Assembly (NCBI GenBank): GCA_016867115.1
Contig: VGKG01000003.1
Location: forward strand, 64,673-128,672
Source of the DNA: Candidatus Omnitrophota bacterium
Lineage (GTDB): Bacteria > Omnitrophota > Gorgyraeia > Gygaellales > Profunditerraquicolaceae
Direction: 5' to 3'
DNA: 64,000 nt
This document shows positions 6,105 to 55,809 of the stretch, in pieces. The notes under the pieces are model-generated. The model saw only the letters and a program-made list of their open reading frames with translations, did no database searches and was not told the origin of the DNA. The translations under genes were made by a program, and so were the position numbers. The stretch's first letter is position 1; each line of letters opens with the position of its first letter.

Positions 6105-6431
6105 ATGGATAGCTATCATGGCCTGATCAACGCCGTAAGTTTCTCCCTGAACATCATCGGTGCGCTCATCACCATCTGGGGGATCATCATTTCCTTCTTT
6201 GAGTTCCTCAAGAAAGAGATCCTGAACCGCAAAGAGAGCGTGCAGCTGAATGAGGCGATCCGGATAAAGCTGGGCAGTTACCTGGTCCTGGCCCTTGAGT
6301 TCTTTATCGCCGGAGACATCGTCAAGACCATCATCACTCCCACCTGGGAGAGCCTGGGGATTCTGGGTACGATCGTGGTGATCAGGACTATCTTAAGTTA
6401 TTTCTTGACCAAGGACCTGAAAAAGATTTAG
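6105..6431 (+). CDS. DUF1622 small membrane protein
   Basis: 108 aa, two TM helices, ALEFFIAGDIVKT motif. Confidence 0.5.
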   Translation: MDSYHGLINAVSFSLNIIGALITIWGIIISFFEFLKKEILNRKESVQLNEAIRIKLGSYLVLALEFFIAGDIVKTIITPTWESLGILGTIVVIRTILSYFLTKDLKKI

Positions 6432-8014: not shown

Positions 8015-8845
8015 ATGCCTAAAAGAAAGATCATCAAGATCGACGAAGAAAAATGCAACGGCTGCGGCCTCTGTATCCCCAACTGTCCGGAAGGCGCCAT
8101 CCAGGTCATAGACGGTAAGGCGCGCCTGATCAGCGATTTATTTTGTGACGGCCTGGGCGCCTGTATCGGCCATTGCCCGCAGGGCGCGATCGCCATCGAG
8201 GAGCGGGAGGCGGAAAAATACGATGAAAGGAAAGTGATGGAGAATATAGTCAGGCAGGGTGAGAATACAATCATTGCCCACCTTGCGCACCTGAAGGAAC
8301 ACGATGAAGAGGGGTATCTGAAGGAGGCTATGCAATTCTTAAAAGAGAAACATCTCGATATCCCGCTTGAGAGCGGACCTGCTCACCATGTCCACGGACA
8401 TGCCGGATGCCCCGGAGCTAAAATCACGGAGTTTAAGAAAAGGGCCGGGTCAGGGCATGCTCCGGCAGGGCATCAGGAATCAGGGCTTGAGCAGTGGCCG
8501 ATACAGCTTGCGCTTGTGCCGGCATTCGCGCCTTTTTTGAATGATGCTGACCTGCTGATTGCCGCAGACTGCGTGCCTTTTGCTTATGCCTCTTTCCACC
8601 GGGACTTATTAAGAGGAAAGGTTTTGCTGGTGGGCTGTCCTAAGTTCGACGATACGCAACTCTATAGCCAGAAATTAACCCAGATGTTCCAGAATAACCG
8701 CATCAAGTCGGTGACTTACGCGCATATGGAGGTGCCCTGTTGTTCCGGCCTGACACCGCTTATTCAATCAGCCATAACAGCTTCGGGAAAGGAGATCCCT
8801 TTCCGTGAAACGGTGATCAGTATTAAGGGGGAGAGGTCGGAATGA
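8015..8845 (+). CDS. Di-cluster 4Fe-4S ferredoxin-domain protein with a C-terminal Cys/His-rich domain (Hcp-associated)
   Basis: CNGCGLCIPNCP and CDGLGACIGHCP motifs; C-terminal HVHGHAGCPG and PCCSG. Confidence 0.6.
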   Translation: MPKRKIIKIDEEKCNGCGLCIPNCPEGAIQVIDGKARLISDLFCDGLGACIGHCPQGAIAIEEREAEKYDERKVMENIVRQGENTIIAHLAHLKEHDEEGYLKEAMQFLKEKHLDIPLESGPAHHVHGHAGCPGAKITEFKKRAGSGHAPAGHQESGLEQWPIQLALVPAFAPFLNDADLLIAADCVPFAYASFHRDLLRGKVLLVGCPKFDDTQLYSQKLTQMFQNNRIKSVTYAHMEVPCCSGLTPLIQSAITASGKEIPFRETVISIKGERSE

Positions 8846-10987: not shown

Positions 10988-11317
10988 GTGTCTATGATCA
11001 TGGAAAGGCTAATGGGTTTATGCGCGGTTGTTCCCGCCACTCTCCTGCTGACCGTCAGTTTCTTTGTCCTGGTCGTCATCCAGCGGATAGAAAAAGCAGG
11101 ACTCAAGGCTTTTGGTTATGTGGTAGCTGCGCTCCTCTGGTTGGGTGTAGCGCTGGTGGGTTCTCTGGGAATTTATACTCTGGCTACCGGCCGTCCTCCG
11201 ATGATGTGCATGATGCGCGCTAAGATGTGCGAGATGATGGTGTCCGGGATGATGGGCGTCAAAGAAGGCATGATGAAGCCCGGCCCCATGGAAAAGATGC
11301 CTGCGGCACAGAAATAA
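10988..11317 (+). CDS. Small membrane protein with a Met-rich C-terminal tail
   Basis: Two TM helices followed by PPMMCMMRAKMCEMMVSGMMGVKEGMMKPGPMEKMP (18 Met and 2 Cys in 40 aa). Confidence 0.5.
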   Translation: MSMIMERLMGLCAVVPATLLLTVSFFVLVVIQRIEKAGLKAFGYVVAALLWLGVALVGSLGIYTLATGRPPMMCMMRAKMCEMMVSGMMGVKEGMMKPGPMEKMPAAQK

Positions 11318-13141: not shown

Positions 13142-14803
13142 ATGAACGAAGTTTCGTTTTTGATCGGAGGAAAAGCCGGGTTTGGCATTGATAAATCCGG
13201 GACGGTTATCGCCGGGATCCTGAACCGGATGGGATACCGGATTTATATCTACCGCGACTATCCTTCGCTTATCCGCGGCGGGCATACTTTTTCCATTATC
13301 CGGGCATCCAAAACCAGGGTTGCCTGTCACCTGAATAAAGTCGATATCATCTTAGCCCTGAATCAGGACACCTTTAATTTCCATAAGGCCAGATTAAAAG
13401 AAGATTCCCTGATCATCTCTGATTCCGATGTCGTGAAAATCGAAGGGGTAAGCAACAGGGTAATAGGCATTCCCATTACCGGGATGGTCAAAGAAGAGAA
13501 TGCAGCTGAAATCATGCGGAATACCTGTGTTATCGGAGCACTCTGTAAAGCCGCAGGCATCAGCTGGGATATCTTAGATGAGATATTCAGGAAAGAGTTC
13601 ACTAAAGAGATAGATATAAATTTAAAGATTGCCCGCCGGGGCTTTGACGCTGCCAGAGAGGAGAAGAGGATTGAAGGCTTAGGCCAGGCGCCGCTGGCCA
13701 TGCTTACCGGCAATCAGGCAGCGGGGCTGGGGCTGATCCGGGGAGGCCTTAAAACTTATATTTCCTATCCCATGACCCCTTCTTCGCCCATCTTGCATTT
13801 TCTTGCCGAGATGGCGCCGGATTTCGGCCTGAAGGTGATCCATCCGGAGAGCGAGATCGGCGTGGTCCTGATGGCCCTGGGAGCTTCCTACATGGGCGAG
13901 AGGGTTGCGGTCGGTACTTCAGGCGGAGGTTTTTGTCTGATGACCGAGGGCCTGAGCTTTAGCGGGATGAGTGAGCTTCCGGTAGTATTTATCGTCGGAC
14001 AAAGGCCAGGCCCGAGCACCGGACTCCCCACTTATTCAGCGCAGACAGAACTCCATTTTGTCTTAAATGCCGGGCAGGGAGAGTTTGTGCGTCTTGTGGT
14101 TGCGCCGGCTGACCCCGAAGAAGCCTATTACTGGTCAGCAGTAAGTTTAGCTTTAAGCCAAAAATACCAGATACCAGGGATTATTCTCACGGATAAGAAT
14201 ATGGGCGAGGGGACCTTCAACTTTGACCTTTCAAGCATGGGGGAGATAAGAGAAGAACCGCCGCTTCTCTGGGACAGAAAATCCGAATATAAGCGGTATC
14301 TGGATACAGAGAACGGGGTCTCGCCTTTGGCTTTTGTGCCGGATAGAAATGCTATTGTCAAGGTGAATAGCTATGAACATGACGAATACGGCATCACTGC
14401 TGAGGACCAGCAGATAACGACCCGGATGAATGATAAGCGGTTGCGTAAGGCTACGTATTTAGCCAAAGATCTGGAAGGATACCCATGCGTAAAGACCTAC
14501 GGCAATAAAGATTCTTCGACCGTCTTATTATGCTGGGGTTCAAATAAGGGAGTCTGCGTCGAGGCAGCGGAGAGAAGCGGCCTTAAAGTGGTCCAGCCTT
14601 TGGTACTTTGGCCTTTTCCGGTGAAGCAATTTCAGGATGCGCTTCAGGGAGTTAAGAAGTTGATCTGTGTAGAGAATAATGCTACAGGGCAGCTTACCCG
14701 GCTCCTTAAGGCGCAGGGATTTGGCACAGATAAACAGATCTTAAAATACGACGGCAGGCCTTTTTCCCTGGATGAATTGCAGGAAAGACTAAGCGGGGTT
14801 TAA
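13142..14803 (+). CDS. korA: 2-oxoacid:ferredoxin oxidoreductase, fused gamma-alpha subunit (KorA/PorGA-like)
   Basis: N-terminal gamma-domain GGKAGFGI, alpha-domain motifs, 554 aa; start taken at ATG 13142 rather than the TTG at 13139. Confidence 0.8.
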   Translation: MNEVSFLIGGKAGFGIDKSGTVIAGILNRMGYRIYIYRDYPSLIRGGHTFSIIRASKTRVACHLNKVDIILALNQDTFNFHKARLKEDSLIISDSDVVKIEGVSNRVIGIPITGMVKEENAAEIMRNTCVIGALCKAAGISWDILDEIFRKEFTKEIDINLKIARRGFDAAREEKRIEGLGQAPLAMLTGNQAAGLGLIRGGLKTYISYPMTPSSPILHFLAEMAPDFGLKVIHPESEIGVVLMALGASYMGERVAVGTSGGGFCLMTEGLSFSGMSELPVVFIVGQRPGPSTGLPTYSAQTELHFVLNAGQGEFVRLVVAPADPEEAYYWSAVSLALSQKYQIPGIILTDKNMGEGTFNFDLSSMGEIREEPPLLWDRKSEYKRYLDTENGVSPLAFVPDRNAIVKVNSYEHDEYGITAEDQQITTRMNDKRLRKATYLAKDLEGYPCVKTYGNKDSSTVLLCWGSNKGVCVEAAERSGLKVVQPLVLWPFPVKQFQDALQGVKKLICVENNATGQLTRLLKAQGFGTDKQILKYDGRPFSLDELQERLSGV

Positions 14804-14804
14804 T

Positions 14805-15656
14805 ATGGAACAGAAGGATCTAGGGACATATGCTCAGAATACCTGGTGCCCGGGTTGCGGCAACTTCGCAATACTAAACGCCATCAAGACGGTGCTTGGC
14901 GAATTGAATGCCGAAGGACTTCCGCTTGAGAATGTAGTCCTGGTCTCGGGGATCGGCTGCCACGCAAAGATAGTCGATTATATCAATGTGAACAGTTTTT
15001 ATTCTATTCACGGAAGGGTGACTCCTGCGGCAGAGGCGATCAGGCTTGGTGATCCAAAGATGAAGGTCATTGGTTTTGCCGGAGACGGGGATGCCTACGG
15101 AGAGGGGATCGAGCATCTGATCTTCGCTGCCAAGCGTAACATCGATATTACCATGGTCATCCATAATAACCGCGTCTATGGCCTGACTACCGGCCAATAT
15201 ACGCCCACCTCTCCTCAGGGCTACCGGGGCCGCTCTACTCCGGAGGGGACAAAGGAGCTGCCGATCAATCCTTTGGAATTGATGCTGGCAAGCGGTGCAA
15301 CGTACCTCGGCCGCGGGACATCCCACGGCATAGAGCTTTTAAAAAAGCTCTTTAAAGAGGCGATCCTGCATAAGGGCTTCTCCCTGGTAGATGTCCTGCA
15401 GGTCTGCGTCACTTATTTCAATATGTACGAATATTACGATAAGCGGGTCTACGAATTAAAGGATCATAATCCCCTGGATTATCAGCAGGCGCTGAACAAG
15501 ATCCGGGAGTGGGATTACAACCGGGATGCCCGGATCGCCCTCGGCACTTTTTATAAAAGAGGATCCCCTACTTTTGAGGAAGGCTTCTTTAAACAGGCCG
15601 TGCCTCCTCCGGAGAGGATGGAAAAGATAAGGCTGATTTTAGAGTCCTCAATTTAG
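14805..15656 (+). CDS. korB: 2-oxoacid:ferredoxin oxidoreductase beta subunit (TPP-binding)
   Basis: WCPGCGNF, GIGCH and GDGD TPP motifs. Confidence 0.8.
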   Translation: MEQKDLGTYAQNTWCPGCGNFAILNAIKTVLGELNAEGLPLENVVLVSGIGCHAKIVDYINVNSFYSIHGRVTPAAEAIRLGDPKMKVIGFAGDGDAYGEGIEHLIFAAKRNIDITMVIHNNRVYGLTTGQYTPTSPQGYRGRSTPEGTKELPINPLELMLASGATYLGRGTSHGIELLKKLFKEAILHKGFSLVDVLQVCVTYFNMYEYYDKRVYELKDHNPLDYQQALNKIREWDYNRDARIALGTFYKRGSPTFEEGFFKQAVPPPERMEKIRLILESSI

Positions 15657-15689: not shown

Positions 15690-15728
15690 AATTTCTTCTA
15701 AAATAATACTCGAGAGAGGAGACTGATT

Positions 15729-15887
15729 ATGGACAAATACAGATGTACGGTTTGCGGCTATATTTATGACCCGGCAGCAGGGGATCCTACCCAGGGTATT
15801 GCTCCGAATACGCCTTTTGAGACTCTGCCGGAGAGCTGGGTATGTCCCGAATGCGGGGTGACCAAGGATATGTTTGAAAAAGCCTAA
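15729..15887 (+). CDS. Rubredoxin
   Basis: 52 aa; CTVCGY...WVCPECG tetracysteine motif; not in the ORF track because it is shorter than 60 aa. Confidence 0.9.
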
Positions 15888-17255: not shown

Positions 17256-17966
17256 ATGACTCAGACCATCGATGCAAAAATAAAAGAAGTGATCCAGCGA
17301 ACCGGTAACGTAAAGAGCGTGCGCCTGGAATTGCCCGAGATCGCAGAATATAAAGCAGGGCAGTTCGGCTGCGTATTTCTTAAAACTGAGCCGGTCTGCC
17401 ACCGGTATCTCTCCATCTCCAGCTCTCCGACGGAAGAGGGATACCTTGAGTTCACCAAAAAATTAAGAGGGAGCGACTTTGCCTCCGGTTTCCTTAAGTT
17501 AAAACCCGGGGATGTAGTCGGCGTACAGTATCCGATGGGAAAGTTCACCCTGGAAGATAACGGGATGCCGGAAAAATGCGCCTTTCTTTCCGGAGGCATC
17601 GGCATTACTCCTATCAGAAGCATAGTGAAATCCGCGGTAGACAAGAATCTGGGCATAGATATGGTATTGATCTATGCCAACCAGACAGTAAGGGACATAG
17701 TCTTTCACGATGACCTGGAAAAGATGCAGGAAGTTTACCCTAAGTTCAGGCTCGCGCATGTGCTCTGCGAGCCGGCGCCGGATTTTAAATGTTCTGTCGG
17801 CCTGATCAACAGCCGGGTGATCAAGAATGAAATACCGGATTATTCCGAGAGGAAGTTTTTCCTCTGCGGCCCGCCGCCGATGGTGGAAGGGATGAAGAAG
17901 ATCCTGAGCGAAGAACTAAAGCTGCCCCAAGAGCAGATCGTCACTGAGAACTTTGCCGGGTATTAA
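17256..17966 (+). CDS. FNR-family FAD/NAD(P)-binding oxidoreductase (candidate NAD(P)H:rubredoxin reductase)
   Basis: RYLSISS (RxYS FAD motif), GGIGITP, C-terminal CGPPPM; no Fe-S domain. Confidence 0.65.
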   Translation: MTQTIDAKIKEVIQRTGNVKSVRLELPEIAEYKAGQFGCVFLKTEPVCHRYLSISSSPTEEGYLEFTKKLRGSDFASGFLKLKPGDVVGVQYPMGKFTLEDNGMPEKCAFLSGGIGITPIRSIVKSAVDKNLGIDMVLIYANQTVRDIVFHDDLEKMQEVYPKFRLAHVLCEPAPDFKCSVGLINSRVIKNEIPDYSERKFFLCGPPPMVEGMKKILSEELKLPQEQIVTENFAGY

Positions 17967-18011
17967 AATACAGTAGATAGCAGTTAGCAGGTAGCATTCA
18001 GGGAGGAAAAT

Positions 18012-19199
18012 ATGTCAGCGATTAAAATATTACCGGATATCTACTCTGTGGGAGCGGCAGACTGGAATGTGCGCACCTTTCACGGCCACACCTACAGCAC
18101 AAAGAGAGGCACGACTTATAACGCCTATCTGATTGTGGACGAAAAAATCGCGTTGGTGGATACCGTTTACGGCCCATTTGCCAAGGAGCTGATCGAGAAT
18201 ATCCGCGAGGTTATTCCGGTTGAGAAAATAGATTATGTGATCGCTAACCACGTTGAGACTGACCACTCCGGAGCCCTGCCTGAAGTGATGAAGCTCTGCC
18301 CCAAGGCCAAGGTGATCGGCACGCAGAAATGTAAAGAGGGGCTCTTTAAGCACTATTACGGAAACTGGGATTTTCAGGTGGTCAAGACCGGGGATAAGAT
18401 CAGCCTTGGCAAAAGGGAGCTGGCCTTTATCGAAGCGCCGATGATCCACTGGCCGGACAGCATGTTCACTTACTGCCCGCAGGAAGAGCTGCTCATGCCT
18501 AATGACGCCTTTGGCCAGCATATCGCTACCAGCGAACGTTTTGCCGATGAAGTCGACCCCTGTGCGCTCTGGGATGAGGCCTCTAAATACTATGCCAATA
18601 TCCTCTGGCCGCTGGGTGCGGTCATTGCCAGAAAGATCGATGAAGTCCTTAAGATGAATATCCCCATAAAATCAATCGCTCCCAGCCACGGTGTGATCTG
18701 GAGAAAAGAGCCCTTAAAAATAGTCCAGGCCTATGCTGCCTGGGCAAGAAATGAAACTAAGCCCAAAGTAGTAGTGGCCTATGAATCCATGTGGGGCGCA
18801 ACTCAGATGATGGCCAAAAAAATAGTTGAAGGGATCATCGATGCCGGTATCAGCGTCAAGCTCTATGACGTAGCCGCTAGCGACCGCACCGAGATCATCA
18901 ACGATATGCTGGAGGCAAAAGGTTTTCTCTTCGGCTCATCCACCCATGATAATGACATGCTTCCTAATTTTGCCGGATTCCTTGAGTTTGTCAGGGGCCT
19001 GGCGCCGAAAAACAGGATTGCTTCCGTATTTGGATCCTATGGCTGGGCAGGAGGGGCAGCGAAAGAGATCGAAACTGTGCTTAAAGAAACGGGAATAGAG
19101 CTGGCCATGCCTTCTTTAACCGTAAAATATGTTCCCGATGAAGCGGAAACCAAGCGCTGCTATGATTTTGGCCGGGACTTTGCCGCCAGGATAAAATAA
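18012..19199 (+). CDS. fprA: Flavodiiron protein (FprA / rubredoxin:oxygen oxidoreductase)
   Basis: Metallo-beta-lactamase-like diiron domain (HVETDHSG) followed by a flavodoxin domain (SMWGAT). Confidence 0.85.
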   Translation: MSAIKILPDIYSVGAADWNVRTFHGHTYSTKRGTTYNAYLIVDEKIALVDTVYGPFAKELIENIREVIPVEKIDYVIANHVETDHSGALPEVMKLCPKAKVIGTQKCKEGLFKHYYGNWDFQVVKTGDKISLGKRELAFIEAPMIHWPDSMFTYCPQEELLMPNDAFGQHIATSERFADEVDPCALWDEASKYYANILWPLGAVIARKIDEVLKMNIPIKSIAPSHGVIWRKEPLKIVQAYAAWARNETKPKVVVAYESMWGATQMMAKKIVEGIIDAGISVKLYDVAASDRTEIINDMLEAKGFLFGSSTHDNDMLPNFAGFLEFVRGLAPKNRIASVFGSYGWAGGAAKEIETVLKETGIELAMPSLTVKYVPDEAETKRCYDFGRDFAARIK

Positions 19200-20180: not shown

Positions 20181-20417
20181 ATGGCTAAAAACGTAAGGAT
20201 TTACAGCACGCCTACCTGCCCCTGGTGCATCCGCACCAAACAGTTCTTAAAGGACAATAATGTGGTTTTTGAGGATGTAGATGTCTCCGGTGACCAGCAG
20301 GCCGCAGAAGAGATGGTCCGCAAATCCGGCCAGATGGGCGTGCCGGTCCTGGATATCGAGGGCGAGATCATCGTCGGGTTTGATAAGGATAGGATCAAAA
20401 AAGCACTGGGAATATAA
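20181..20417 (+). CDS. Glutaredoxin-like protein (CPWC)
   Basis: 78 aa, YSTPTCPWC active site. Confidence 0.7.
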   Translation: MAKNVRIYSTPTCPWCIRTKQFLKDNNVVFEDVDVSGDQQAAEEMVRKSGQMGVPVLDIEGEIIVGFDKDRIKKALGI

Positions 20418-20419
20418 AT

Positions 20420-21325
20420 ATGTATGACCTGATTATCATAGGCGCCGGCCCCGCCGGGATTACTGCCGGAGTCTATGCTGCGCGCAAAAACATGGACCTT
20501 CTGGTGGTTACCGGGGATATCGGCGGCCAGGCCGCGGTCAGCGGAGACATTGAAAATTATACCGGTTATCAGTTCATTACCGGGCCGGAGCTTGCGGCGA
20601 AGTTCGAGGAGCACATCCATAATTACGCGGTTACGGTAAAAGAGAATGAGTCTGTAAGGGAATTACGCAAGTCCGGGGATAAGGTCATCGTGGTTTCGGA
20701 TAAGGAAACCTATGAGGCCCGCTCGGTGATCATTGCCTCGGGAAAAAGATCAAGGGAGCTGAACGTTCCCGGAGAAAAGGAGTTTAAGAATAAGGGCCTG
20801 ACCTATTGCGCTACCTGCGATGCTCCGCTCTTTAGGGGGAAGGATGTCGCGGTGATCGGAGGAGGCAATTCCGCGCTCGATGCCGTCCTGCAGCTGACGA
20901 AGATCGCCCGCAGTATCTATCTGATCAACATTAATCCCGCTCTTGGCGGTGATGCGGTGATGCGCCAGAAGGTCTTAGGAAGCCCTAATGCCAAGGTGTT
21001 GAATAATGCGCAAACGACGGCAATCACCGGCGATAGTATGGTAAGCGGGATCAGAGTCAAATGCGATGGCCGCGAAGAAGTGCTTCCGGTTCAGGGAATA
21101 TTTGTGGAGATCGGTCTGGTCCCGAATTCTGATTTCGCTAAAGACATTGAGAAGAATGATTTGGGCGAAATAAAGATAAATTGCCGCAATGAAACGAATA
21201 TCCCGGGGATCTTTGCTGCCGGAGATGTCACCGATGTCCCGGAGAAGCAGATCATTATCGCAGCAGGTGAAGGCTCAAAGGCCTGCCTTAGCGCCTTCCG
21301 GTACTTAGCGGAACATAGATTCTAA
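20420..21325 (+). CDS. trxB: Thioredoxin reductase-like FAD-dependent disulfide oxidoreductase
   Basis: IIGAGPAG, CATCDAP redox-active disulfide, GGGNSA and AAGDV motifs. Confidence 0.8.
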   Translation: MYDLIIIGAGPAGITAGVYAARKNMDLLVVTGDIGGQAAVSGDIENYTGYQFITGPELAAKFEEHIHNYAVTVKENESVRELRKSGDKVIVVSDKETYEARSVIIASGKRSRELNVPGEKEFKNKGLTYCATCDAPLFRGKDVAVIGGGNSALDAVLQLTKIARSIYLININPALGGDAVMRQKVLGSPNAKVLNNAQTTAITGDSMVSGIRVKCDGREEVLPVQGIFVEIGLVPNSDFAKDIEKNDLGEIKINCRNETNIPGIFAAGDVTDVPEKQIIIAAGEGSKACLSAFRYLAEHRF

Positions 21326-23020: not shown

Positions 23021-23302
23021 GTGGCTAAGTATCCGGATCATACAGATAATTTAGTATCTCTAAGAAGGATAGAAGGGCAAGTCCGCGGCATTCAGAAGAT
23101 GATTGAGAATAAAGGATATTGCGTAGATATACTTAATCAGATACACGCGGTTATTTATGCCCTCGCCAGAATCGAGGATAAAATTCTCCAGAAGCATTTT
23201 GAGGGATGTGTAGCCGAAGCTGTCCGCGGCGGTTCGGCAAATGATAAAAGAAAAAAGCTGGAAGAGATACTTCGGCTAATCCATCAATTCAGGAAGGTCT
23301 AA
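23021..23302 (+). CDS. csoR: CsoR/RcnR-family metal-sensing repressor (Cu-type C-H-C ligand set)
   Basis: GQVRGIQKMIE...GYCVDILNQIHAV...HFEGC pattern; GTG start with AGAGGTGA RBS. Confidence 0.75.
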   Translation: MAKYPDHTDNLVSLRRIEGQVRGIQKMIENKGYCVDILNQIHAVIYALARIEDKILQKHFEGCVAEAVRGGSANDKRKKLEEILRLIHQFRKV

Positions 23303-23314
23303 AAGGAGGTACAC

Positions 23315-23503
23315 ATGAAAAAATCTCTTATTTCTTTGTTTATCGCCACACTCTTACTTAATGCCGGATTGTCTTTGGCAGCCGCAGGCTCTTGCTGCGC
23401 AAAAGACAAGTGCGCAACTGCCAAAGGTACATGCTGCATAAAAGGAGATTGTAAGAGTTCCGATAAGAGTTGTTGTAGTAATGGACAGTGTAAATGTCCG
23501 TAG
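23315..23503 (+). CDS. Secreted Cys-rich mini-protein (13 Cys in a mature peptide of about 38 aa), candidate periplasmic copper-binding peptide
   Basis: Signal peptide MKKSLISLFIATLLLNAGLSLAAAG followed by CCAKDKCATAKGTCCIKGDCKSSDKSCCSNGQCKCP; AAGGAGG RBS; 12 nt downstream of csoR. Confidence 0.55.
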   Translation: MKKSLISLFIATLLLNAGLSLAAAGSCCAKDKCATAKGTCCIKGDCKSSDKSCCSNGQCKCP

Positions 23504-23529
23504 GATCTTAGCAGGAAAATAGGTCAATC

Positions 23530-23690
23530 ATAGGCGGGGAGGTCGTAATACGGCCTGAGAGTCTCCGTTTAGACGGGGTTACCCGATGAACCTGAACTGG
23601 ATAATGCCAGCGGAGGGAAGGAGCGTGATGGATAATAGACCCGATGCATCTGGCAAAGGGTCTTTTTATTTCTGCGGGCAGCCAGAAAAC
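23530..23690 (+). promoter_or_regulatory. TPP riboswitch (THI element) with terminator-type expression platform
   Basis: CUGAGA ... ACCUGA ... GGAUAAUGCCAGCG ... AGGGAA THI-box hallmarks at 23557-23618; GACCC/GGGTC hairpin plus TTTTTATTT at 23640-23672; GGAGGG RBS before the Thi4 ATG. Confidence 0.75.
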
Positions 23691-23704: not shown

Positions 23705-24517
23705 ATGTTTAGCAAAATAACGGAAGCACAGATCAGCAGGGCGATCGTAGGAGAGTTTACCAGGTGGTTTGATGATTATATTACTTCCGATGTCATCATC
23801 GTCGGCGCCGGGCCCAGCGGCCTTATGGCAGGGCGCGACCTGGCTAATGCAGGGATCAAGACCCTGATCATCGAAAGCAACAATTATATCGGCGGAGGTT
23901 TTTGGGTCGGCGGTTATTTCATGAATACCCTGACCTTCAGGTCTCCGGCAGAGGATATCCTGGATGAACTGAAGATACCTCATAAGAGGATAGAAGACGG
24001 GTTGTCTGTCGCGGACGGCCCTTCTGCCTGCTCAAAGCTCATCTCCGCCACATGCGATTCAGGGGCAAAGATCCTGAACCTCACTAAGTTCGATGACGTG
24101 GTCCTGCGCAATCAGCGGGTTGAGGGGGCGGTGGTCAACTGGGCCCCGGTCTCGGCGTTACCCCGGCAGATCACCTGCGTAGACCCGATCGCCCTGGAAG
24201 CAAAGGTAGTGGTTGATGCTACAGGCCATGATGCCTGGGTAGCCCGGAGCCTCGAGAAGAGAGGGTTATTGAAATTGCAAAGTTTCGGCCCTATGGATGT
24301 CGTGCTTTCAGAAGGGCTGGTGGTAGAAAAGAGCGGTGAGATCTTCCCGGGGCTCTTTGCTATCGGTATGGCAGTATCTTCTGTCTACGGGATACCGCGC
24401 ATGGGGCCTACTTTTGCCGGGATGCTTTTTTCAGGAAGAAAAGCTGCTCAGGAAATAATCAAGCTATTCTCCTGCACAGGGAGCTCTACTTGTAAAGAGC
24501 CTGCCGCAGTAGTCTAA
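23705..24517 (+). CDS. thi4: Thiazole synthase Thi4 family, second paralogue, riboswitch-controlled
   Basis: IIVGAGPSGL, GGGFWVGG, VVDATGHDAWV and PRMGPTFAGMLFSG motifs. Confidence 0.85.
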   Translation: MFSKITEAQISRAIVGEFTRWFDDYITSDVIIVGAGPSGLMAGRDLANAGIKTLIIESNNYIGGGFWVGGYFMNTLTFRSPAEDILDELKIPHKRIEDGLSVADGPSACSKLISATCDSGAKILNLTKFDDVVLRNQRVEGAVVNWAPVSALPRQITCVDPIALEAKVVVDATGHDAWVARSLEKRGLLKLQSFGPMDVVLSEGLVVEKSGEIFPGLFAIGMAVSSVYGIPRMGPTFAGMLFSGRKAAQEIIKLFSCTGSSTCKEPAAVV

Positions 24518-27893: not shown

Positions 27894-28691
27894 GTGGATA
27901 AATTACCCAGACTTAAAAATATAATCAGGCGTTATGGCTCCTGCGTCATCGCTTTTTCCGGCGGCGTAGACAGCACGTTACTTTTAAAAGTGGCTTCCCT
28001 GGTGTTACCTAAAGATAAAATCCTTGCAGTTACTGCCACCTCTGCTACATACCCAAAAGAAGAATTATTTTTTTCTAAAACCCAGGCTAAGGAGATCGGC
28101 GTAAGGCATAAGATCATCGCGACTGCGGAAGTTAAAGATAAAAGATTTACTTCCAACCCCCTTGACCGTTGTTATATATGCAAAAAAGAGCTTTTTAATA
28201 AGCTGAAGATTATCGCGAGGAATTTTAGATACGATTTTGTACTCGATGCCACCAATGCCTCTGATAAGGCAGATTTTCGCCCCGGAAATAAGGCGCTTCA
28301 GGAATTAAAAATACGCTCACCGCTTAAGGAGGCAGGTTTGTCTAAGGATGATATCCGCGCGCTAAGTAGGCGATTTGGTTTGGTTACCTGGGATAAACCG
28401 AGTTTGGCTTGCCTGGCCTCTCGCATTCCTTACGGCACAAAAATTACGCCGTCTTTACTTAGCCGCATTAACCAGGCAGAGGAATATTTAAGAAGTTTTG
28501 GTTTCAAACAGGCGAGATTGCGGCATTATAACAACCTCTGCCGGATTGAGGTTTTGAAAAGGGATATCCCGCGGCTTCTTGCCCGGCGCAATCAGATAGT
28601 CGACAAGCTAAAAAGTTTGGGTTATAATTATGTTACTGTGGACCTTGAAGGATACCGTACCGGCAGCATGAATGAGGTGATCGGTCGATGA
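27894..28691 (+). CDS. PP-loop ATP pyrophosphatase, LarE-like/TIGR00268 family, candidate sulfur transferase
   Basis: SGGVDS PP-loop; conserved CYICK Cys; GTG start chosen at 27894 with low certainty. Confidence 0.6.
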   Translation: MDKLPRLKNIIRRYGSCVIAFSGGVDSTLLLKVASLVLPKDKILAVTATSATYPKEELFFSKTQAKEIGVRHKIIATAEVKDKRFTSNPLDRCYICKKELFNKLKIIARNFRYDFVLDATNASDKADFRPGNKALQELKIRSPLKEAGLSKDDIRALSRRFGLVTWDKPSLACLASRIPYGTKITPSLLSRINQAEEYLRSFGFKQARLRHYNNLCRIEVLKRDIPRLLARRNQIVDKLKSLGYNYVTVDLEGYRTGSMNEVIGR

Positions 28692-29857
28692 GGAAAGCCT
28701 ATTTAGACTACGCAGCTACTACTCCTTGCGATCCCGAAGTGCTTGAGGCGATGAAGCCGTATTTTTTTGAAAAGTTCGGCAATGCCTCCAGTATCTATTC
28801 TCTAGGACAGGAAGCGAAGAAGGCTATTGAGGATAGCCGCGAGAAGCTCGCCGCATTTTTAGGCGCAAGGCCTGATGAGATCGTCTTTACTTCAGGCGGG
28901 ACAGAATCCGATAATTTCGCCATTAAAGGCATAACCTATGCCCTTAAGCAAAAAGGTGACCACATTGTTACTAGTGCCATCGAGCACCATGCTGTCAGCG
29001 AGCCGGCTAAATTCCTGGAGAAGCAGGGATTTAAGGTCACTTATGTCGGCGTAGACAGCCAGGGGCTGGTCTCTCCTGATGACATAAAGCGCGCGATCAC
29101 CGATAAGACCATCCTCATCAGCGTAATGCATGCCAATAACGAGATCGGTACTATTCAACCGATTGCCGAGATCGGCAGGATTGCTAAAGAAAAAGGGGTC
29201 TGTTTTCATACTGATGCCGTGCAGACAGTCGGCCACATTCCGGTGAATGTGGATGAGCTGAATGTCGATCTTCTATCACTCTCTGCGCATAAATTTTACG
29301 GGCCCAAGGGTGCCGGCGCCCTTTATATCCGTAAGGGTACGCGTATTGAATCGTTCCTGCATGGCGGAGACCAGGAGAGGGACAGGCGTGCATCTACCTA
29401 TAATACTCCGGGGATCGTAGGCCTGGGCAAAGCAATAGAATTATGCTCAAAGACTATGCCGGAAGAAGCCAAGTTTCAGACCGCCCTGCGTGACCGTCTG
29501 ATCAAGGCGCTGGTGGAAAAGATCCCTGAGGTCCGGCTTAACGGAGACCCGCTTAAGCGGCTCCCTAATAATATAAATATTTCTATCCGATACATTGAGG
29601 GCGAATCCATGCTTCTGAGCCTGGATATGGCGGGAATCGCCTGTTCTACCGGCTCAGCCTGTACCTCTACTTCTTTAGAGCCGTCGCATGTGCTCCTGGC
29701 GATCGGCCTGCCGCATGAGATCGCTCATGGATCGCTACGCATTACTTTCGGCAGATGGACGAAAGAAGAGGATGCCGAGTATCTCTTAGAAAGCCTTCCC
29801 AAGATCGTTTCGAAACTGCGCGCCATGTCGCCCCTTTACGATAAAAATAGGTTGTAG
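28688..29857 (+). CDS. nifS: Cysteine desulfurase (NifS/IscS)
   Basis: YLDYAATTP, SAHKFYGPKG (PLP Lys) and CSTGSAC motifs. Confidence 0.85.
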   Translation: MRKAYLDYAATTPCDPEVLEAMKPYFFEKFGNASSIYSLGQEAKKAIEDSREKLAAFLGARPDEIVFTSGGTESDNFAIKGITYALKQKGDHIVTSAIEHHAVSEPAKFLEKQGFKVTYVGVDSQGLVSPDDIKRAITDKTILISVMHANNEIGTIQPIAEIGRIAKEKGVCFHTDAVQTVGHIPVNVDELNVDLLSLSAHKFYGPKGAGALYIRKGTRIESFLHGGDQERDRRASTYNTPGIVGLGKAIELCSKTMPEEAKFQTALRDRLIKALVEKIPEVRLNGDPLKRLPNNINISIRYIEGESMLLSLDMAGIACSTGSACTSTSLEPSHVLLAIGLPHEIAHGSLRITFGRWTKEEDAEYLLESLPKIVSKLRAMSPLYDKNRL

Positions 29858-29888
29858 ATAGCAGTTAGTAGGTAGTAGTTAGGTAAAA

Positions 29889-30845
29889 ATGCAGGAACGC
29901 ATACTCGATTTTTTAAAGAGAAAACAAGGCTATGTTTCCGGCGATACTATTGCCAGCCGGCTTGGCATTACCCGTCAGGGGCTCTGGAAACACATCCAGG
30001 AGCTCAAAGAATTAGGGTATGACATCGTCGCTGTGCCGCACCTGGGGTATCGGCTTGAATCTTTACCTGACAGGCTCTTTCCTTTTGAGGTCAGCCACAA
30101 CCTGAATACTAAGTTCGTCGGTAAAAGAGCCCATTATTTCGATACCGCAACCAGCACCATGGAGATCGCCATGGACCTGGGCCTGAAGGGTGCTCCTGCG
30201 GGTTCGGTCGTCATCGCAGAATCTCAGACTAAGGGCAAGGGAAGGCTTGGCCGCATCTGGTTTAGCCCCAAATACAAAGGAATATATCTTTCGCTGATAC
30301 TTAGGCCCACCCTCCTTCCGAGCGAGGCCTCTATTTTTACCTTGTTGTCGGCTGTAAGTATCTGCGAGGCGCTTAAAAACTTTGCCGCAATAGATGCCCA
30401 GATCAAATGGCCCAACGATATATTTTTGGGCCAGAAAAAATTAGGCGGCATCCTCACCGAACTGAACGCCGAGACGGATAAGATCAATTTCATCGTCATC
30501 GGCATCGGCCTGAATGTGAACAACGATAAGAAATCCCTGATCAGCGGCTCAACTTCCCTGAAGGAGCACAAAAAAGAAAGCGTAGACAGGGCCGGGTTGC
30601 TCAAGGAGGTCTTGCGCCGGATAGAGGCGAATTATTTTCTTCTGGAGAAGAAGGGTTCAGGGGTGATCCTGGATAAATGGCGCGAGCATAATCTGACACT
30701 CGGCAGGAGGGTCAAGGTCTACTGCCAGAAGAAACATCTTGAGGGGGAGGCCTTGGGCCTGGATCGCGACGGCGGGCTTCTGGTCAGAAACGACGGCGGC
30801 CTGATCGAGAAGGTCCTGGCCGGCGATGTGGTGCACTGCAGGTAA
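29889..30845 (+). CDS. birA: Bifunctional biotin-protein ligase / biotin operon repressor BirA
   Basis: N-terminal HTH (VSGDTIASRLGITRQGLWKHI) and BPL domain GKGRLGRIW. Confidence 0.8.
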   Translation: MQERILDFLKRKQGYVSGDTIASRLGITRQGLWKHIQELKELGYDIVAVPHLGYRLESLPDRLFPFEVSHNLNTKFVGKRAHYFDTATSTMEIAMDLGLKGAPAGSVVIAESQTKGKGRLGRIWFSPKYKGIYLSLILRPTLLPSEASIFTLLSAVSICEALKNFAAIDAQIKWPNDIFLGQKKLGGILTELNAETDKINFIVIGIGLNVNNDKKSLISGSTSLKEHKKESVDRAGLLKEVLRRIEANYFLLEKKGSGVILDKWREHNLTLGRRVKVYCQKKHLEGEALGLDRDGGLLVRNDGGLIEKVLAGDVVHCR

Positions 30846-43418: not shown

Positions 43419-44516
43419 ATGGAGACGTATTTTTTAAAGAGCACGGATATCTTTAAGTTCTACGACCGGATAGCCTCTGAATACGAGCTCTATGTCCCGG
43501 TCAGGGTAAAGACTCCCGTCAAGGTAAAATGCGAATATCAGTCGCACCTTCCCACCGACGACTACCTGCTGAAGAAATACTCTGAAGCCAATAAAGAAGA
43601 GGTCTGTTTTAACGAATACCGCTGCGTGGAGCCTACCGCAAGGGCTTTTTTCACCCACTTTAAAGAAGAAGTCTGCGATTATTTTGCGCATCCGCCGAAA
43701 GAAGCGAAAGATAAACCCATCGCCTTATGCGGGGTAAAGAATTGCGACATCTTCTCCACTAGAATCCAGGATTTTGTCTTTCTGGGCGGCATTGACGAAG
43801 ACCCGGTCTATAAGGCAAGAAGAGAAAATGCCCTGATCATCTCCGGCGATTGCCCTAATTTCAAAGAGGCCTGTTTCTGCCGCGCCTTTGAAATAAACCC
43901 GCACTGCAACGAGGGATTTGATTTTAACTTTTCCCCTCTTACCGACGGATTTCTCGTCGATGTGGGCTCGGAAAGGGCGGGTAAGCTCGCAGGACTCATC
44001 AAGGATATGCTTGTCCCGGCCGGCTTTGGCCAGCTCTCCGGCAGGCAGGCCAAGAGAGAGACACTGATCCGGCAGATGGAGAGCCACCTTGCCCACCATA
44101 AGATCCCTAGAAAAGAGACGCTTCAAGAAATAGTACTGGCGGGTTACAATTCCAAGATCTGGAACGAAGAGATGTTTACTTGTGTGGAGTGCGGCGGCTG
44201 CATCTTTATCTGCGATACCTGTCACTGCTTCTTTCTCTCGGATGAGCCCCGGGACGGCAATACCAAAAGATACCGCGCCTGGGATGGCTGTTTATTGAAG
44301 AACTTCAGCCGCGTTGCCGGAGGGGCAAACCCCTTAAAGATGCGTCATATGCGCCTACGTAACCGCTATATGAAAAAGTTCGACTTTTTTGTGGATAATC
44401 TCGGGGTTCAGGCCTGCTGCGGCTGCGGCAGGTGCATCGAGGTCTGCCCGGGAAAGATCGATATCCGCCACATCTTAAGGAAGTTATATGAAGAAAAACA
44501 TCTACCGGCCGTTTGA
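43419..44516 (+). CDS. Fe-S subunit of an AsrA / sulfhydrogenase-beta (HydB)-like oxidoreductase
   Basis: Multiple Cys clusters: CVECGGCIFICDTCHC, CCGCGRCIEVCP. Confidence 0.65.
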   Translation: METYFLKSTDIFKFYDRIASEYELYVPVRVKTPVKVKCEYQSHLPTDDYLLKKYSEANKEEVCFNEYRCVEPTARAFFTHFKEEVCDYFAHPPKEAKDKPIALCGVKNCDIFSTRIQDFVFLGGIDEDPVYKARRENALIISGDCPNFKEACFCRAFEINPHCNEGFDFNFSPLTDGFLVDVGSERAGKLAGLIKDMLVPAGFGQLSGRQAKRETLIRQMESHLAHHKIPRKETLQEIVLAGYNSKIWNEEMFTCVECGGCIFICDTCHCFFLSDEPRDGNTKRYRAWDGCLLKNFSRVAGGANPLKMRHMRLRNRYMKKFDFFVDNLGVQACCGCGRCIEVCPGKIDIRHILRKLYEEKHLPAV

Positions 44517-45306
44517 GGCGGTTGTAGAGGACATCATCAGCGAGACTCCGACGATAAAGACCTTTGTCTTCCGTCCCAAAGAGCCGTTCAGTTTCAGGAC
44601 CGGCCAGTTCATCGAGCTGACTGTTCCGGGAATAGGGGAGGCGCCTTTTACCCCTTCTTCGGACCCCAATATCACCGAAAGGTTCGATGTCACCATCATG
44701 AAAGTGGGCCGGGTCACCGAACTCCTGCACGGCATAACCAAGGGCACGACCTTAGGCGTGCGCGGGCCTTACGGAAAGGGTTACCCGCTGGATAAATTTT
44801 ACGGCAAAGACGTCCTGATCGTCGGCGGAGGCGTGGGCCTTGCGCCTTTAAGGTCGCTGCTTTTCAGCCTATTTGCCGGGATCGATAAATATAATAAGGT
44901 GGTGCTGCGCTACGGTTCGCGCACCTCAGGAGACATCGTCTATAAGGAGGCTATTCCCGAATGGGCGAAGAAGAAAAAGGTTAACCTGGTCACCACCGTG
45001 GACGTGGGCGATCCTTCCTGGAAGGGCAATGTCGGCCTGGTAACCACTATCCTTAAAGACCTGCCCGTAGACCTTAATAATGCGGTGGCAATCGTCTGCG
45101 GCCCGCCGATCATGATGAAATTTGTGACCATGAAATTACTGGACCTCGGGTTTAAACCGGAACAGATTTATCTTTCTATGGAAAAAAGCATGTCCTGCGG
45201 CCTGGGTAAGTGCGGACACTGCCGTATCGGTAAGTTCTACGCCTGTAAGGACGGCCCGGTCTTTACTTACGAAGAATTGAAAGATATACACGATATTTGG
45301 GACTAA
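44488..45306 (+). CDS. FAD/NAD(P)-binding 2Fe-2S subunit (AsrB / HydG / PyrK-like)
   Basis: RxxS FAD motif region, GGGVGLAPL NAD(P) motif, C-terminal CGLGKCGHCRIGKFYAC 2Fe-2S motif. Confidence 0.7.
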   Translation: MKKNIYRPFEAVVEDIISETPTIKTFVFRPKEPFSFRTGQFIELTVPGIGEAPFTPSSDPNITERFDVTIMKVGRVTELLHGITKGTTLGVRGPYGKGYPLDKFYGKDVLIVGGGVGLAPLRSLLFSLFAGIDKYNKVVLRYGSRTSGDIVYKEAIPEWAKKKKVNLVTTVDVGDPSWKGNVGLVTTILKDLPVDLNNAVAIVCGPPIMMKFVTMKLLDLGFKPEQIYLSMEKSMSCGLGKCGHCRIGKFYACKDGPVFTYEELKDIHDIWD

Positions 45307-45366
45307 AATACAGTGGATAGTAGGTAGCAGTTAGTAGTCAGGGAAAGACAAAAACAAAAGAAAAGA

Positions 45367-45864
45367 ATGAAAAGATTGTTTATAGACTTAGATGTCTGCA
45401 ATAAATGCGAGGAGTGTAAGGTAACTTGCGACTATTTTTATCATCCGCAGAATAACGGGATCACGTCGCTGCGCGAGTATGCCACCTTTGCGACGATCTG
45501 CCGGCACTGTGAAGAAGCGCCCTGCGTCAACGCCTGTTACCATAACGCACTTGAGCGAGCCGCTGACGGCCACATCAAGCGCTACAAGATGCGCTGCACC
45601 AGCTGTAAAAGTTGCTCGGTAGCCTGCCCTTTTGGAGTGATCTTCCAGGATTTTATCCCTTATCTTGATTCCCGCTGCGATTACTGCACGGGCGAGACTA
45701 AGGAGCTGCCGAAGTGCCTCTCTACCTGCCCGGAAAAGGCAATTGAGGTCAAAGAAGTGGCTGAAGACCCGGAAAAGGATATCTATCTTGTGGGTGAGCA
45801 TCTGGCAGTGCATTCGCTCAAGTGGTCAAGGGAGGATGTGCAGCCTGCGCCGAAAAAAAGATGA
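45367..45864 (+). CDS. Polyferredoxin-type 4Fe-4S subunit (HycB/HyfA-like)
   Basis: Four Cys clusters: CNKCEECKVTC, CRHCEEAPCVNAC, CTSCKSCSVACP, CDYCTG...C. Confidence 0.6.
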   Translation: MKRLFIDLDVCNKCEECKVTCDYFYHPQNNGITSLREYATFATICRHCEEAPCVNACYHNALERAADGHIKRYKMRCTSCKSCSVACPFGVIFQDFIPYLDSRCDYCTGETKELPKCLSTCPEKAIEVKEVAEDPEKDIYLVGEHLAVHSLKWSREDVQPAPKKR

Positions 45865-54832: not shown

Positions 54833-55162
54833 ATGATAGAGATCGTGGGATATATATTCATTATTATAGGCCTGGTCTTTGATATCTTTGGCTGTATCGG
54901 CCTTTTACGGCTGCCGGATGTTTATAACCGCCTGCAGGCGACGACAAAATGCGTGACTTTAGGCACCACAAGTATCCTTTTGGGGACCATGGTAATCAAA
55001 GGTTTTACTTCCACGGGAGTAAAGGCATTGCTTTGCATTGTCTTTTTGATTCTGACTGCGCCCGTGGCTGCCCATGCGCTTTCTCGCGGCGCCCATATTT
55101 CCGGGGTCAAGCTCTGGGAAAAATCTGTCTGCGACAAATACGCTGAAGACAAAAAGCAGTAG
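54833..55162 (+). CDS. Mrp subunit G (MnhG)
   Basis: MnhG-family pattern, 109 aa. Confidence 0.7.
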   Translation: MIEIVGYIFIIIGLVFDIFGCIGLLRLPDVYNRLQATTKCVTLGTTSILLGTMVIKGFTSTGVKALLCIVFLILTAPVAAHALSRGAHISGVKLWEKSVCDKYAEDKKQ

Positions 55163-55197
55163 TTAGCAGATAGCAGGTAGTAGTTAGGGAGAAGTAA

Positions 55198-55809
55198 ATG
55201 CGTTATCCGAAACTAAGAGAATTAAAAGAGGCGATCAAGGCGCTCATCAAAGGGCCTTATACCAGCAAGTTCCCTTACCAGGCGCATGAGCCGTACGAGC
55301 GCTTCCGCGGCCGGCCTTATTTTCACGAGGAAGACTGCACAGGCTGCACTGCCTGCGCCGAGGTCTGCCCCACAACCGCTATTGAGGTGGAAGATAAGGT
55401 TTCAGGAGGCAAAGCAAAGAGGCGACTTACCGTCCACTGGGATATCTGTATCTGCTGCGGCCAGTGCGAGCTGAATTGCCTTACCGGCAAAGGCATCACC
55501 CTTTCCCGGGAGTTCGCCTACGCCACTACCGAAAGCAAGAGCGAACTCAAACAGGAGATAGACAAGGAGTTCGTCACCTGCGAATGCTGCGGCGAGCCGG
55601 TCGTCCCCTATGACCAGTATGCCTGGGTCGCAAAGCGCCTCGGGCCCCTTTGTTTCTCCAATTCCTCTCTCATGCTTTTCTACCTTAAGCTCTTGGGCCT
55701 GGCTTTTAGGAGTAAGCCTTCTACCCGCAAGAAGACAGAGGTCTTACGCCAGGACCGCATCGGAATCCTTTGCCCCCGCTGCCGCCGCGAAGCAGTTTTA
55801 AAATCATAA
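55198..55809 (+). CDS. NuoI-like 2x[4Fe-4S] ferredoxin subunit (MbhN-like)
   Basis: CTGCTACAEVCP and CICCGQCELNC motifs. Confidence 0.7.
   Translation: MRYPKLRELKEAIKALIKGPYTSKFPYQAHEPYERFRGRPYFHEEDCTGCTACAEVCPTTAIEVEDKVSGGKAKRRLTVHWDICICCGQCELNCLTGKGITLSREFAYATTESKSELKQEIDKEFVTCECCGEPVVPYDQYAWVAKRLGPLCFSNSSLMLFYLKLLGLAFRSKPSTRKKTEVLRQDRIGILCPRCRREAVLKS

Follow-up and report, generated by a model that had tools for sequence, protein, structure and literature searches.

A heptanucleotide-repeat element fitted between stop and start codons at four gene junctions of a Candidatus Omnitrophota genome

Why should the same short, stop-codon-rich sequence recur at four separate gene junctions in a stretch of bacterial genome where about half of the neighboring genes follow one another with hardly any gap? 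The question is raised by a 64,000-nucleotide stretch of a Candidatus Omnitrophota bacterium (assembly GCA_016867115.1, contig VGKG01000003.1, positions 64,673 to 128,672; hereafter the window), which carries four co-oriented copies of one spacer of about 35-40 nt, each lying in the interval from a stop codon to the start codon that follows. The copies are made of degenerate heptanucleotides of the type TAGYAGN. We favor, with a probability of about 0.5, the reading that the four sites represent a single short heptamer element, oriented and dispersed, which forms a passive open spacer and originated by slippage and copying.

A first-pass annotation of this DNA had described four near-identical elements composed of TAG and TTAG units. 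All four sequences were confirmed, and they proved more regular than described: a MAFFT alignment places the sites in a five-heptamer register without internal gaps, CAGTRGN-(TAGYAGN)2-TAGYAKT-YAGGKAR. Copy 1 (17967..18005, + strand) consists of the leader AATA followed by the units CAGTAGA TAGCAGT TAGCAGG TAGCATT CAGGGAG (17971-18005), and copy 3 (45307..45345, + strand) has the same leader followed by CAGTGGA TAGTAGG TAGCAGT TAGTAGT CAGGGAA (45311-45345). Copy 2 (29852..29886, + strand) reads TTGTAGA TAGCAGT TAGTAGG TAGTAGT TAGGTAA, and copy 4 (55157..55191, + strand) reads CAGTAGT TAGCAGA TAGCAGG TAGTAGT TAGGGAG. Each site holds three strict TAGYAGN units and two degenerate flanking units; the hexamer TAGYAG is constant whereas any base may stand at position 7, and the number of units and the ends are equal in all four copies. 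With its leader, the element can be written (AAATA)CAGTRGN-(TAGYAGN)2-TAGYAKT-YAGGGA, that is, as four to five degenerate heptanucleotide units. The earlier statement that stop codons occupy all three frames also holds, as UAG is present in every frame at each of the four copies: 7 is not a multiple of 3, and three successive TAGs at 7-nt spacing therefore cover all frames. The start-codon triplets ATG, GTG, and TTG are absent from the three strict core units of every site, and start-like triplets are found in the flanking degenerate units at site 3 (GTG in CAGTGGA) and site 2 (TTG in TTGTAGA). Reassignment of TAG was set aside, as several other genes of the window terminate in TAG at normal positions.

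The motif is strongly enriched at these sites. When up to one mismatch was allowed, TAGYAGNTAGYAG matched 11 times in the window for 0.55 matches expected, and none of 100 shuffles reached 11; TAGYAGNTAG was found exactly 10 times for 0.50 expected. Every one of these matches lies within the four sites on the + strand, with zero on the minus strand. Tandem Repeats Finder reported a period of 7 at sites 1 and 2, and a lag-7 autocorrelation scan of the 64 kb (threshold, 16 matches in 21 positions) detected sites 1, 2, and 4 and no other region, site 3 falling below the threshold. The complementary repeat (CTRCTAN)n was not found on either strand of the window, which leaves the element with no cis antisense partner there.

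What the copies share extends beyond the repeat. Sites 1 and 3 have TAAAATACAGTRGATAG in common, comprising the TAA stop and the same leader, while their upstream proteins are only 26% identical, and both AAATACAG, the 5' leader, and YAGGGA, the 3' end, are found again at loci that are not orthologous. Because the loci that share these ends are otherwise unrelated, the ends are part of the element and not a relic of gene duplication. Co-duplication of sites 1 and 3 with paralogous upstream genes was ruled out by the same comparison, the element and leader being nearly identical where the proteins are not. Purely local microsatellite expansion is insufficient as an explanation, given the heterogeneous units, the equal copy length, and the common non-repeat ends. 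A broader alternative is that the repeat is neutral or selfish, a by-product of slippage and copying that is tolerated between cistrons in its non-readable orientation and has no selected function. We regard this as somewhat unlikely. Heptamers are the over-represented class of long simple sequence repeats in bacteria, for which polymerase-footprint slippage is proposed in PMC4692102 (citing Mrazek 2007), which would suit a neutral origin. However, heterogeneous units impede slippage, the four copies are of equal length, and their ends are conserved beyond the repeat.

All four copies are found between co-directional genes of the + strand. Copy 1 separates an FNR-like oxidoreductase with FAD_binding_6 and NAD_binding_1 domains (17256..17966) from a flavodiiron-type protein with ODP/metallo-beta-lactamase and flavodoxin domains (18012..19199; exact match to MBM3249665.1). 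Copy 2 follows the gene for a class-V aminotransferase, a NifS-like cysteine desulfurase (28688..29857), and precedes that for a BirA-type biotin ligase/repressor (29889..30845). Copy 3 lies between an AsrB/DHOD-B-like FAD/NAD and Fe-S subunit of the mbh-type hydrogenase cluster (44488..45306) and a 4Fe-4S dicluster protein (Fer4_11; 45367..45864), and copy 4 between an MrpG/MnhG antiporter-like subunit (54833..55162) and a 4Fe-4S ferredoxin-type protein (55198..55809; exact match to MBM3249710.1, FJZ09_02555). Both exact matches are proteins of a "Candidatus Omnitrophica bacterium" metagenome-assembled genome. The downstream genes have no single common function beyond redox and Fe-S, a trait of the whole window.

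The element is fitted closely to both neighbors. The upstream stop codon is a TAA that precedes the element at site 1 (17964-17966) and site 3 (45304-45306); the TAG stop of the cysteine desulfurase (29855-29857) and that of mrpG (55160-55162) lie inside the first unit of copies 2 and 4, respectively. The next ATG begins 2-21 nt beyond the last unit (at 18012, 29889, 45367, and 55198), with an A-rich spacer (45346-45366) separating copy 3 from its ATG. The first-pass annotation had placed both a ribosome-binding site and a start codon after each element. The start codon was indeed present at all four sites, but the ribosome-binding site stood only at sites 1 and 4, was weak at site 2, and was missing at site 3. 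The duplex energies of the Shine-Dalgarno (SD) pairing were -11.1 kcal/mol at site 1, -8.9 at site 4, -4.0 at site 2, and -0.9 at site 3, for a window median of -5.8 kcal/mol. Where the SD is good, it is given by the 3' end of the element itself, as GGGAGG at site 1 and GGGAG at site 4. With two copies supplying a functional stop codon and two an SD, the element is active now even if it was neutral in origin, which is a further point against a purely neutral repeat. Tight coupling is otherwise the norm in this region, as 35 of the 66 consecutive + strand gene pairs of the window are spaced by 4 nt or less; the element junctions are exceptions, with stop-to-start spacers of 31-60 nt.

In the reading that we favor, the element would passively replace tight stop/start coupling by this open spacer. 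The upstream ribosome would terminate cleanly at the element, the open spacer would expose the next ribosome-binding site, and initiation of the downstream cistron would take place on an unstructured leader, either de novo or following a short scan. The element would have arisen and spread by heptamer slippage and by copying between junctions, with no conserved regulatory requirement specific to any operon.

The minimum free energy of the stop-to-start intervals at the window junctions ranged from 0 to -2.1 kcal/mol, with no stable stem-loop after the stop codon, and the fold z-scores of sites 1-4 (+2.3, +1.1, +0.5, and -1.2) were no better than those of shuffles; the element on the polycistronic mRNA is single-stranded and unstructured. 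At the gathering threshold, Rfam 15 returned no family at the four sites, and its sole match in the window was a TPP riboswitch (23525-23635). A structured RNA or a known RNA family was ruled out by this null result together with the shuffle-level folding. At the four junctions, no sigma-70-like promoter (-35/-10 hexamers with 16-18 nt spacing) was found on either strand and no intrinsic terminator (GC-rich hairpin and T-run) on the + strand, and a role as internal promoter or intrinsic terminator was ruled out by these two pattern scans.

An RNA-processing site had been suggested alongside a translational insulator. That the element is a target of endoribonuclease cleavage, or else a DNA-level signal for replication, recombination, or a double-stranded-DNA-binding protein, appears very improbable. 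The RNA is single-stranded and A/U/G-rich, and the last unit of some copies, UAGYAUU, is reminiscent of an RNase E-type site; for a DNA signal, it can be said that every copy is on the G-rich strand, which is presumably the leading one, and that both orientations exist in other taxa. Yet no sigma-70-like promoter or terminator accompanies the junctions, and the motif of the window lies strictly between stop and start codons, a placement that points to translation and not to replication.

An unstructured RNA, accessible right at the translation initiation region, would also be suited to specific recognition. In this alternative, (UAGYAGN)n would be bound by a dedicated single-strand-binding factor that tunes downstream translation, and the genes concerned would form a post-transcriptional regulon; candidates are a Csp-like OB-fold protein (one monomer per heptamer), ribosomal protein S1, or a small RNA carrying (CURCUAN)n. 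The constancy of the hexamer beside a free seventh base, and the identical unit number and ends in the four copies, are in its favor. A candidate factor is lacking, however; the absence of (CTRCTAN)n from the window offers no support for a small RNA encoded there, and the downstream genes share only the redox and Fe-S character that is typical of the window as a whole. We consider recognition by a dedicated factor unlikely.

The stability of the element could be followed within one population, as the window DNA recurs in the JGI samples 3300020109 and 3300020083 from Lake Tanganyika and in SRA run SRR7008372, with gapless overlaps of 99.99-100% identity. Copy 2 is identical in three other assemblies (L121-L123) and copy 4 in L245. 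Since the near-identical overlaps, including sites 2 and 4, contain no gaps, there is zero unit-number polymorphism among these assemblies. The unit number is invariant among four assemblies of the population and likewise between two contigs with a copy upstream of gap (L140 and L215, described below), and this lack of length polymorphism also counts against the neutral alternative. Separately, about 750 nt upstream of window position 1, the five Logan assemblies retrieved (L241-L243, L253, and L254) all begin at one point, and this common assembly break suggests a repeated sequence such as an insertion sequence element or an rRNA operon. For the MnhD-like protein, the best homologs reach no more than 75% identity, and nearly all of the named ones are from Candidatus Omnitrophota/Omnitrophica.

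In relatives, the mbh/mrp hydrogenase-antiporter cluster is syntenic, and its junctions differ widely. At the AsrB to Fer4_11 junction (site 3), the spacer measures only 3-4 nt in L246 and L252. At the mrpG to Fer4 junction (site 4), L246 has a spacer of 16 nt, TAGTAAGTAGGTAT, which amounts to two degenerate units. L177, an orthologous operon with 72-78% identity to the window in tblastn that was found via the metagenome pattern scan, carries the TAGYAGN element at the junction orthologous to site 3 as a full hairpin (-24.6 kcal/mol, z -4.3). Its left arm and loop read TGA-AAAACAGTAGG TAGGTAT TAGTAGT CAGGG-ttcaggcag, and its right arm reads CCCTAAT CCCTACC TACTACC TACTAAC TACTAAA-GTG (CCCTAAT...CTACTAAA-GTG). 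Compared with L177, window copy 3 has equal ends, one unit more, and an A-rich stretch that replaces the right arm. The window element matches one half, the left arm together with the loop, of a hairpin that other Omnitrophota carry between the stop and start codons of adjacent cistrons.

Inserts of other kinds, 50-200 nt long, are found at these and neighboring junctions in L249/L251 and in L247. Their arms are tandem heptamers or octamers with the units CGTATTG/CAATACG, GTTAGCC/GGCTAAC, CCCGTTT/AACGGGN, CATAGTT/CATGAAC, CAAAATN, and CGAATGN. Hairpins with such arms lie in L247 at 5439-5561, 6963-7083, and 8068-8203, in L249 at 5673-5770, 6261-6347, 8128-8197, and 15692-15742, and at reverse-strand junctions of L177. 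The junction hairpins of the relatives range from -13 to -70 kcal/mol, and 10 of the 11 periodic-repeat hairpins have z-scores of -2.6 to -6.9; an L247 insert at the q6->30k junction, which is without periodic arms, has a z-score of -0.3. Their geometry is constant: there are 0-8 nt from the stop codon to the left arm and 3-8 nt from the right arm to the start codon, and an SD is usually lacking. It was also observed that the unit sequence of these junction hairpins differs by junction and by lineage within the mbh/mrp operon, and that the CATAGTT/CATGAAC type occupies different junctions in L249 and L177 and is thus dispersed as well. In our preferred reading, the hairpin forms would act in the opposite sense to the single arm, with the start region sequestered until the upstream ribosome opens the stem.

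These hairpins raise the possibility that the window copies are structural half-sites, i.e., decayed or incomplete REP-like or RTS-like hairpins whose real function, be it mRNA stabilization or control of re-initiation and coupling, resides in the two-arm form, the single arms being remnants or pairing in trans. The full hairpin with the same ends at the orthologous junction of L177 argues for this, as does the fact that the insert-bearing junctions of relatives are filled from stop to start by a hairpin, usually without an SD; the RTS concept itself, as set out in PMC7518266, concerns hairpins that lie immediately after stop codons and control re-initiation. But none of the four window copies has a complementary arm nearby or anywhere in the 64 kb, and all four end at YAGGGA, which has the appearance of a defined form, not of random decay. 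Such a half-site is, in our view, decidedly unlikely.

Spacer-less, single-arm, hairpin, and other-heptamer states thus all exist at these junctions, and the elements must therefore be labile occupants of permissive junctions. Since the mbh/mrp operon works without the element in relatives, the element is not a conserved functional site. The same labile picture was seen at gap: the GAPDH proteins of L255 and L140 belong to one 90%-identity cluster, yet TAGYAGN is missing upstream of the gene in L255. Turnover of presence and absence between close relatives is what a neutral repeat would leave behind, as is the difference of one unit that separates the window from L177 at their common junction; recognition by a dedicated factor has to contend with the fact that most orthologous junctions of relatives are without the element or have unrelated heptamers. 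A role as translational insulator, the other function first suggested for the motif, is plausible: it would be compatible with an unstructured anatomy with stops in three frames that takes the place of spacers of 3-4 or 16 nt.

One match in L177 lies in a coding region. At 381-405 (+), inside the MnhD gene on the minus strand, the sequence CCCTAACTACTAACTACTATCTACTACCTACTATC matches the reverse complement of the element perfectly and encodes ALTTNYYLLPTIA. The length of this MnhD is unchanged relative to its homologs, and L249 encodes PLSTTYYLLPTFA through other codons. The match may reflect either codon-level convergence or conversion from the nearby element; as the L249 peptide is similar and its codons are different, it is most simply explained as codon-level resemblance within a native LTT(N/T)YYLLPT loop. 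The match does not count as evidence that the element was inserted into the MnhD coding region.

We also searched for the element beyond this operon. A specific 25-nt pattern that includes the terminal TYAGG was scanned over metagenomes, and the matches listed included 70 distinct window-like copies with mixed seventh bases and at most 6 units, 52 of them single-armed and 18 two-armed. This two-armed fraction is in line with the half-site alternative. In the two-arm form, a short loop is followed by reverse-complement heptamers, which yields a long imperfect hairpin (e.g., ...TAGCATTTAGGG-aaa-CCCTACATACTAGCTACT...), and one such copy is in a named Omnitrophica metagenome-assembled genome (L072). 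Single-arm copies were found just upstream of the gap start codon in L140 and L215 (TAAACTAAATACAGGGTAGATAGCAGGTAGTAGATAGTAGTCAGGGAAAAC), upstream of trpA (L234), and upstream of a nitroreductase gene of Ca. Aquitaenariimonas noxiae (L145). The named members of the clusters to which the proteins behind the L140, L215, L234, and L145 copies belong are Omnitrophota, and the element family is dispersed within this phylum. The proposal of a small repeat family is therefore borne out, given the common ends at unrelated sites, the copies at the gap, trpA, and nitroreductase loci, the L177 hairpin, and at least 70 mixed-unit metagenome copies. Absence of the motif elsewhere in the genome had been named as the observation that would speak against a functional family; this is answered only at the level of the phylum, where copies occur in other Omnitrophota. 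What the earlier description of the motif lacked were the heptamer periodicity and its known class, the two-arm hairpin relatives, and the restriction of the SD to two of the four sites.

In the two-arm copies, the arms are not exact inverted duplicates, and the hexamer TAGYAG is kept in both orientations. Among 32 mixed-unit two-arm copies listed, the arms pair with each other at 91% of the fixed, 82% of the Y, and 60% of the N positions, for a shuffle expectation of 43% at the N positions, these percentages being biased upward by the criterion used to select two-arm copies. That the hexamer is retained where pairing is not can be counted in favor of recognition by a dedicated factor.

In addition to the metagenomes, a generic 19-nt pattern was scanned over 596 Gb of species-representative genomes, for which some 500 chance matches were estimated; single 19-nt matches are expected by chance in a sample of this size, but multi-unit arrays and multi-match contigs are not. 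The matches listed included (TAGYAGN)n arrays of 3-18 units, mostly homogeneous, from many phyla and taxa (Bacteroidota, Cyanobacteriota, Planctomycetota, Chloroflexota, Patescibacteria, Chlorobium, and others), a breadth that would also fit a neutral repeat, all the more so as both orientations occur. None of the listed arrays from other taxa lies inside a same-strand open reading frame (ORF), which is trivially expected, and 18 lie inside opposite-strand ORFs. When the listed arrays were crudely tested for a start codon within 40 nt downstream, no general tendency of forward arrays to precede a start emerged across phyla. The placement seen most often, immediately behind a co-oriented stop codon (70 of the 252 arrays listed), is partly forced, because an array ends any frame that enters it.

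As to its class, the element is one of the heterogeneous intergenic heptanucleotide repeats of bacteria. Heptanucleotide repeats were reported in cyanobacteria some 35 years ago. Cyanobacterial STRR arrays are usually homogeneous and longer than the element, and to our knowledge no stop-to-start placement has been described for them. The STRR units reportedly described by Mazel and colleagues in 1990 include, for example, CAACAGT. STRR and the element are alike in that both consist of dispersed, intergenic 7-nt tandem units, STRR having several sequence types per genome. Of note, a cyanobacterial contig (L030) has TAGCAGT units beside CAACAGT units in one array. We found no mention in the literature searched of TAGTAGT, TAGCAGT, TAGTAGG, or TAGCAGG repeats in bacteria, or of heptamer repeats in Omnitrophota.

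The nearest parallel among described systems is offered by the TAACTGA repeats of marine Beggiatoaceae, which form 169 intergenic sets of 2-6 forward units a few nucleotides before start codons (PMC4679880) and are also found in some Cyanobacteria and some Bacteroidetes (MacGregor 2015, PMC4679880). Like the element, they are tandem 7-nt units that contain stop codons, lie forward in intergenic regions, and can be translated only in the reverse orientation; TAACTGA sets are numerous and dispersed in a genome. The four window copies are all in sense, end 2-21 nt before the start codon, and overlap the expected ribosome-binding site, as TAACTGA sets do. The element is nevertheless not a member of that family, since its unit is TAGYAGN, in which position 4 is Y and the seventh base is free, and its host is Omnitrophota. 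It also has conserved non-repeat ends and a fixed length, and a good SD in two of four copies, whereas TAACTGA sets mostly have none (PMC4679880). Furthermore, the two-arm hairpin form is common for TAGYAGN, but for TAACTGA a single "indirect repeat", in BOGUAY, has been reported (PMC4679880). TAACTGA sets were proposed to be sites for S1, Csp, or CsrA-like regulators (PMC4679880), the same hypothesis as that of recognition by a dedicated factor. In Nostoc, contiguous heptamers near start codons alter reporter expression in a mode that is unsettled (bioRxiv 10.1101/2022.06.06.494920), and this, too, lends some support to that alternative.

Two other groups of sequences can be compared. Xanthomonas (GGGANTN)n and Nostoc GGGGAYT are heterogeneous G-rich heptamers (Rehm et al. 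2015, PMC4692102), the former with about 180 intergenic sites per genome, mostly of about four units, and some inverted pairs (PMC4692102). The (GGGANTN)n repeats resemble the element in their combination of fixed and free positions, their roughly four units, and the inverted pairs, capable of forming stem-loops, that occur in some cases; they are found at the same junctions in related species, with variable length and sequence (PMC4692102). They differ in that they form G-quadruplexes, TAGYAGN having no G-runs save the terminal GGG, and in that the element is much more tightly placed with respect to stop and start codons. RTS and REP-like hairpins (PMC7518266) are similar to the two-arm relatives in beginning right after the stop codon, filling the spacer, and being expected to control re-initiation or coupling. 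Unlike RTS, the window copies are stemless; RTS are defined by structure and not by a repeated sequence, and heptamer periodicity is not known to have been described for them.

Several points weigh against a passive open spacer produced by slippage and copying. The four copies are equal in length and architecture, yet their units are heterogeneous; this is unexpected for neutral slippage and could indicate recognition by a factor. A usable SD comes from only two of the four copies, and the gene downstream of site 3 is left without one. The uncoupling effect itself is something that we purely infer. The copy count for the genome of origin is that of the 64-kb window. Orientation relative to transcription cannot be separated from orientation relative to replication, because nearly all genes of the window are on the G-rich + strand and all four copies are in sense. 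Finally, (TAGYAGN)n arrays of other phyla occur in both orientations relative to genes, so that the sense-strand reading may not hold more widely.

Other repeats and genes of the window and its relatives deserve mention. A second small repeat family, GATTACACAGATT, has two direct copies at the mrpF/mrpG junction (window 54785-54832) and, after the 4Fe-4S gene (55810-55924), two direct and three inverted copies (AATCTGTG/A...) that form a palindrome. In relatives, GATTACAYAGATT or CACAGATT copies of this family are present in the same two places (L246 16258-16408; L249/L251 15305-15360). Unlike the TAGYAGN element, this family keeps its position, and it resembles an operator or a structured terminator. 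A further family of REP-like palindromes in Omnitrophota, which starts at the TAA stop, reads TAAATAGGGACAGCGACC...GGTCGCTGTCCCTATTT in L255, at five or six junctions in 21 kb (786-863, 7800-7904, 11053-11136, 14742-14898, and 20396-20645), and AAATAGGGGACGGTTCTA...TAGAACCGTCCCCTATTT in L249/L251 (3625-3795 and 16785-17040). Within the window, a two-partner-secretion pair comprises a TpsB-like transporter (POTRA_2/ShlB; 59162-60859) and a large + strand gene that runs from 60876 to beyond 64000 and in which, at 62660-64000, a 204-nt (68-aa) unit is repeated in tandem at least 6.6 times with about 70% identity. The gene for a CsoR-type metal-sensing repressor (23021-23302) is followed by a 62-aa ORF (23315-23503) with a signal peptide and 12 cysteines (motifs CC and CxxxxC), and the TPP riboswitch lies upstream of a Thi4-family gene (23705-24517). 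A rubredoxin-like 52-aa ORF (CxxC...CxxC; 15729-15887), below the ORF cut-off of 80 aa, is located in a 240-nt gap before the gene at 15897.

The origin and function of bacterial heptanucleotide repeats are not settled. What is new here is the unit type TAGYAGN, in a phylum for which the literature searched describes no heptamer repeats; the occurrence of the single-arm and full-hairpin forms of one element at the same operon junction in related genomes; and the finding that the same junctions are elsewhere spacer-less or occupied by hairpins of other heptamers, always fitted exactly from stop to start. For annotation, it should be noted that gene ends can owe a stop codon or a ribosome-binding site to such elements. 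The comparative series should be useful for testing whether heptamer repeats tune the translational coupling of operons. A bolder interpretation, which we put forward as improbable, is that the heptamer-periodic intercistronic elements of Omnitrophota constitute an evolvable system for setting coupling, in which the two-arm form would sequester the start and the single arm would be the "open" form, read by a factor, in a redox/Fe-S regulon. If this were true, a factor binding as one monomer per heptamer would link dozens of redox/Fe-S genes post-transcriptionally, and the junction states (no spacer, single arm, TAGYAGN hairpin, and other-heptamer hairpins) would represent a natural allelic series of coupling strength.

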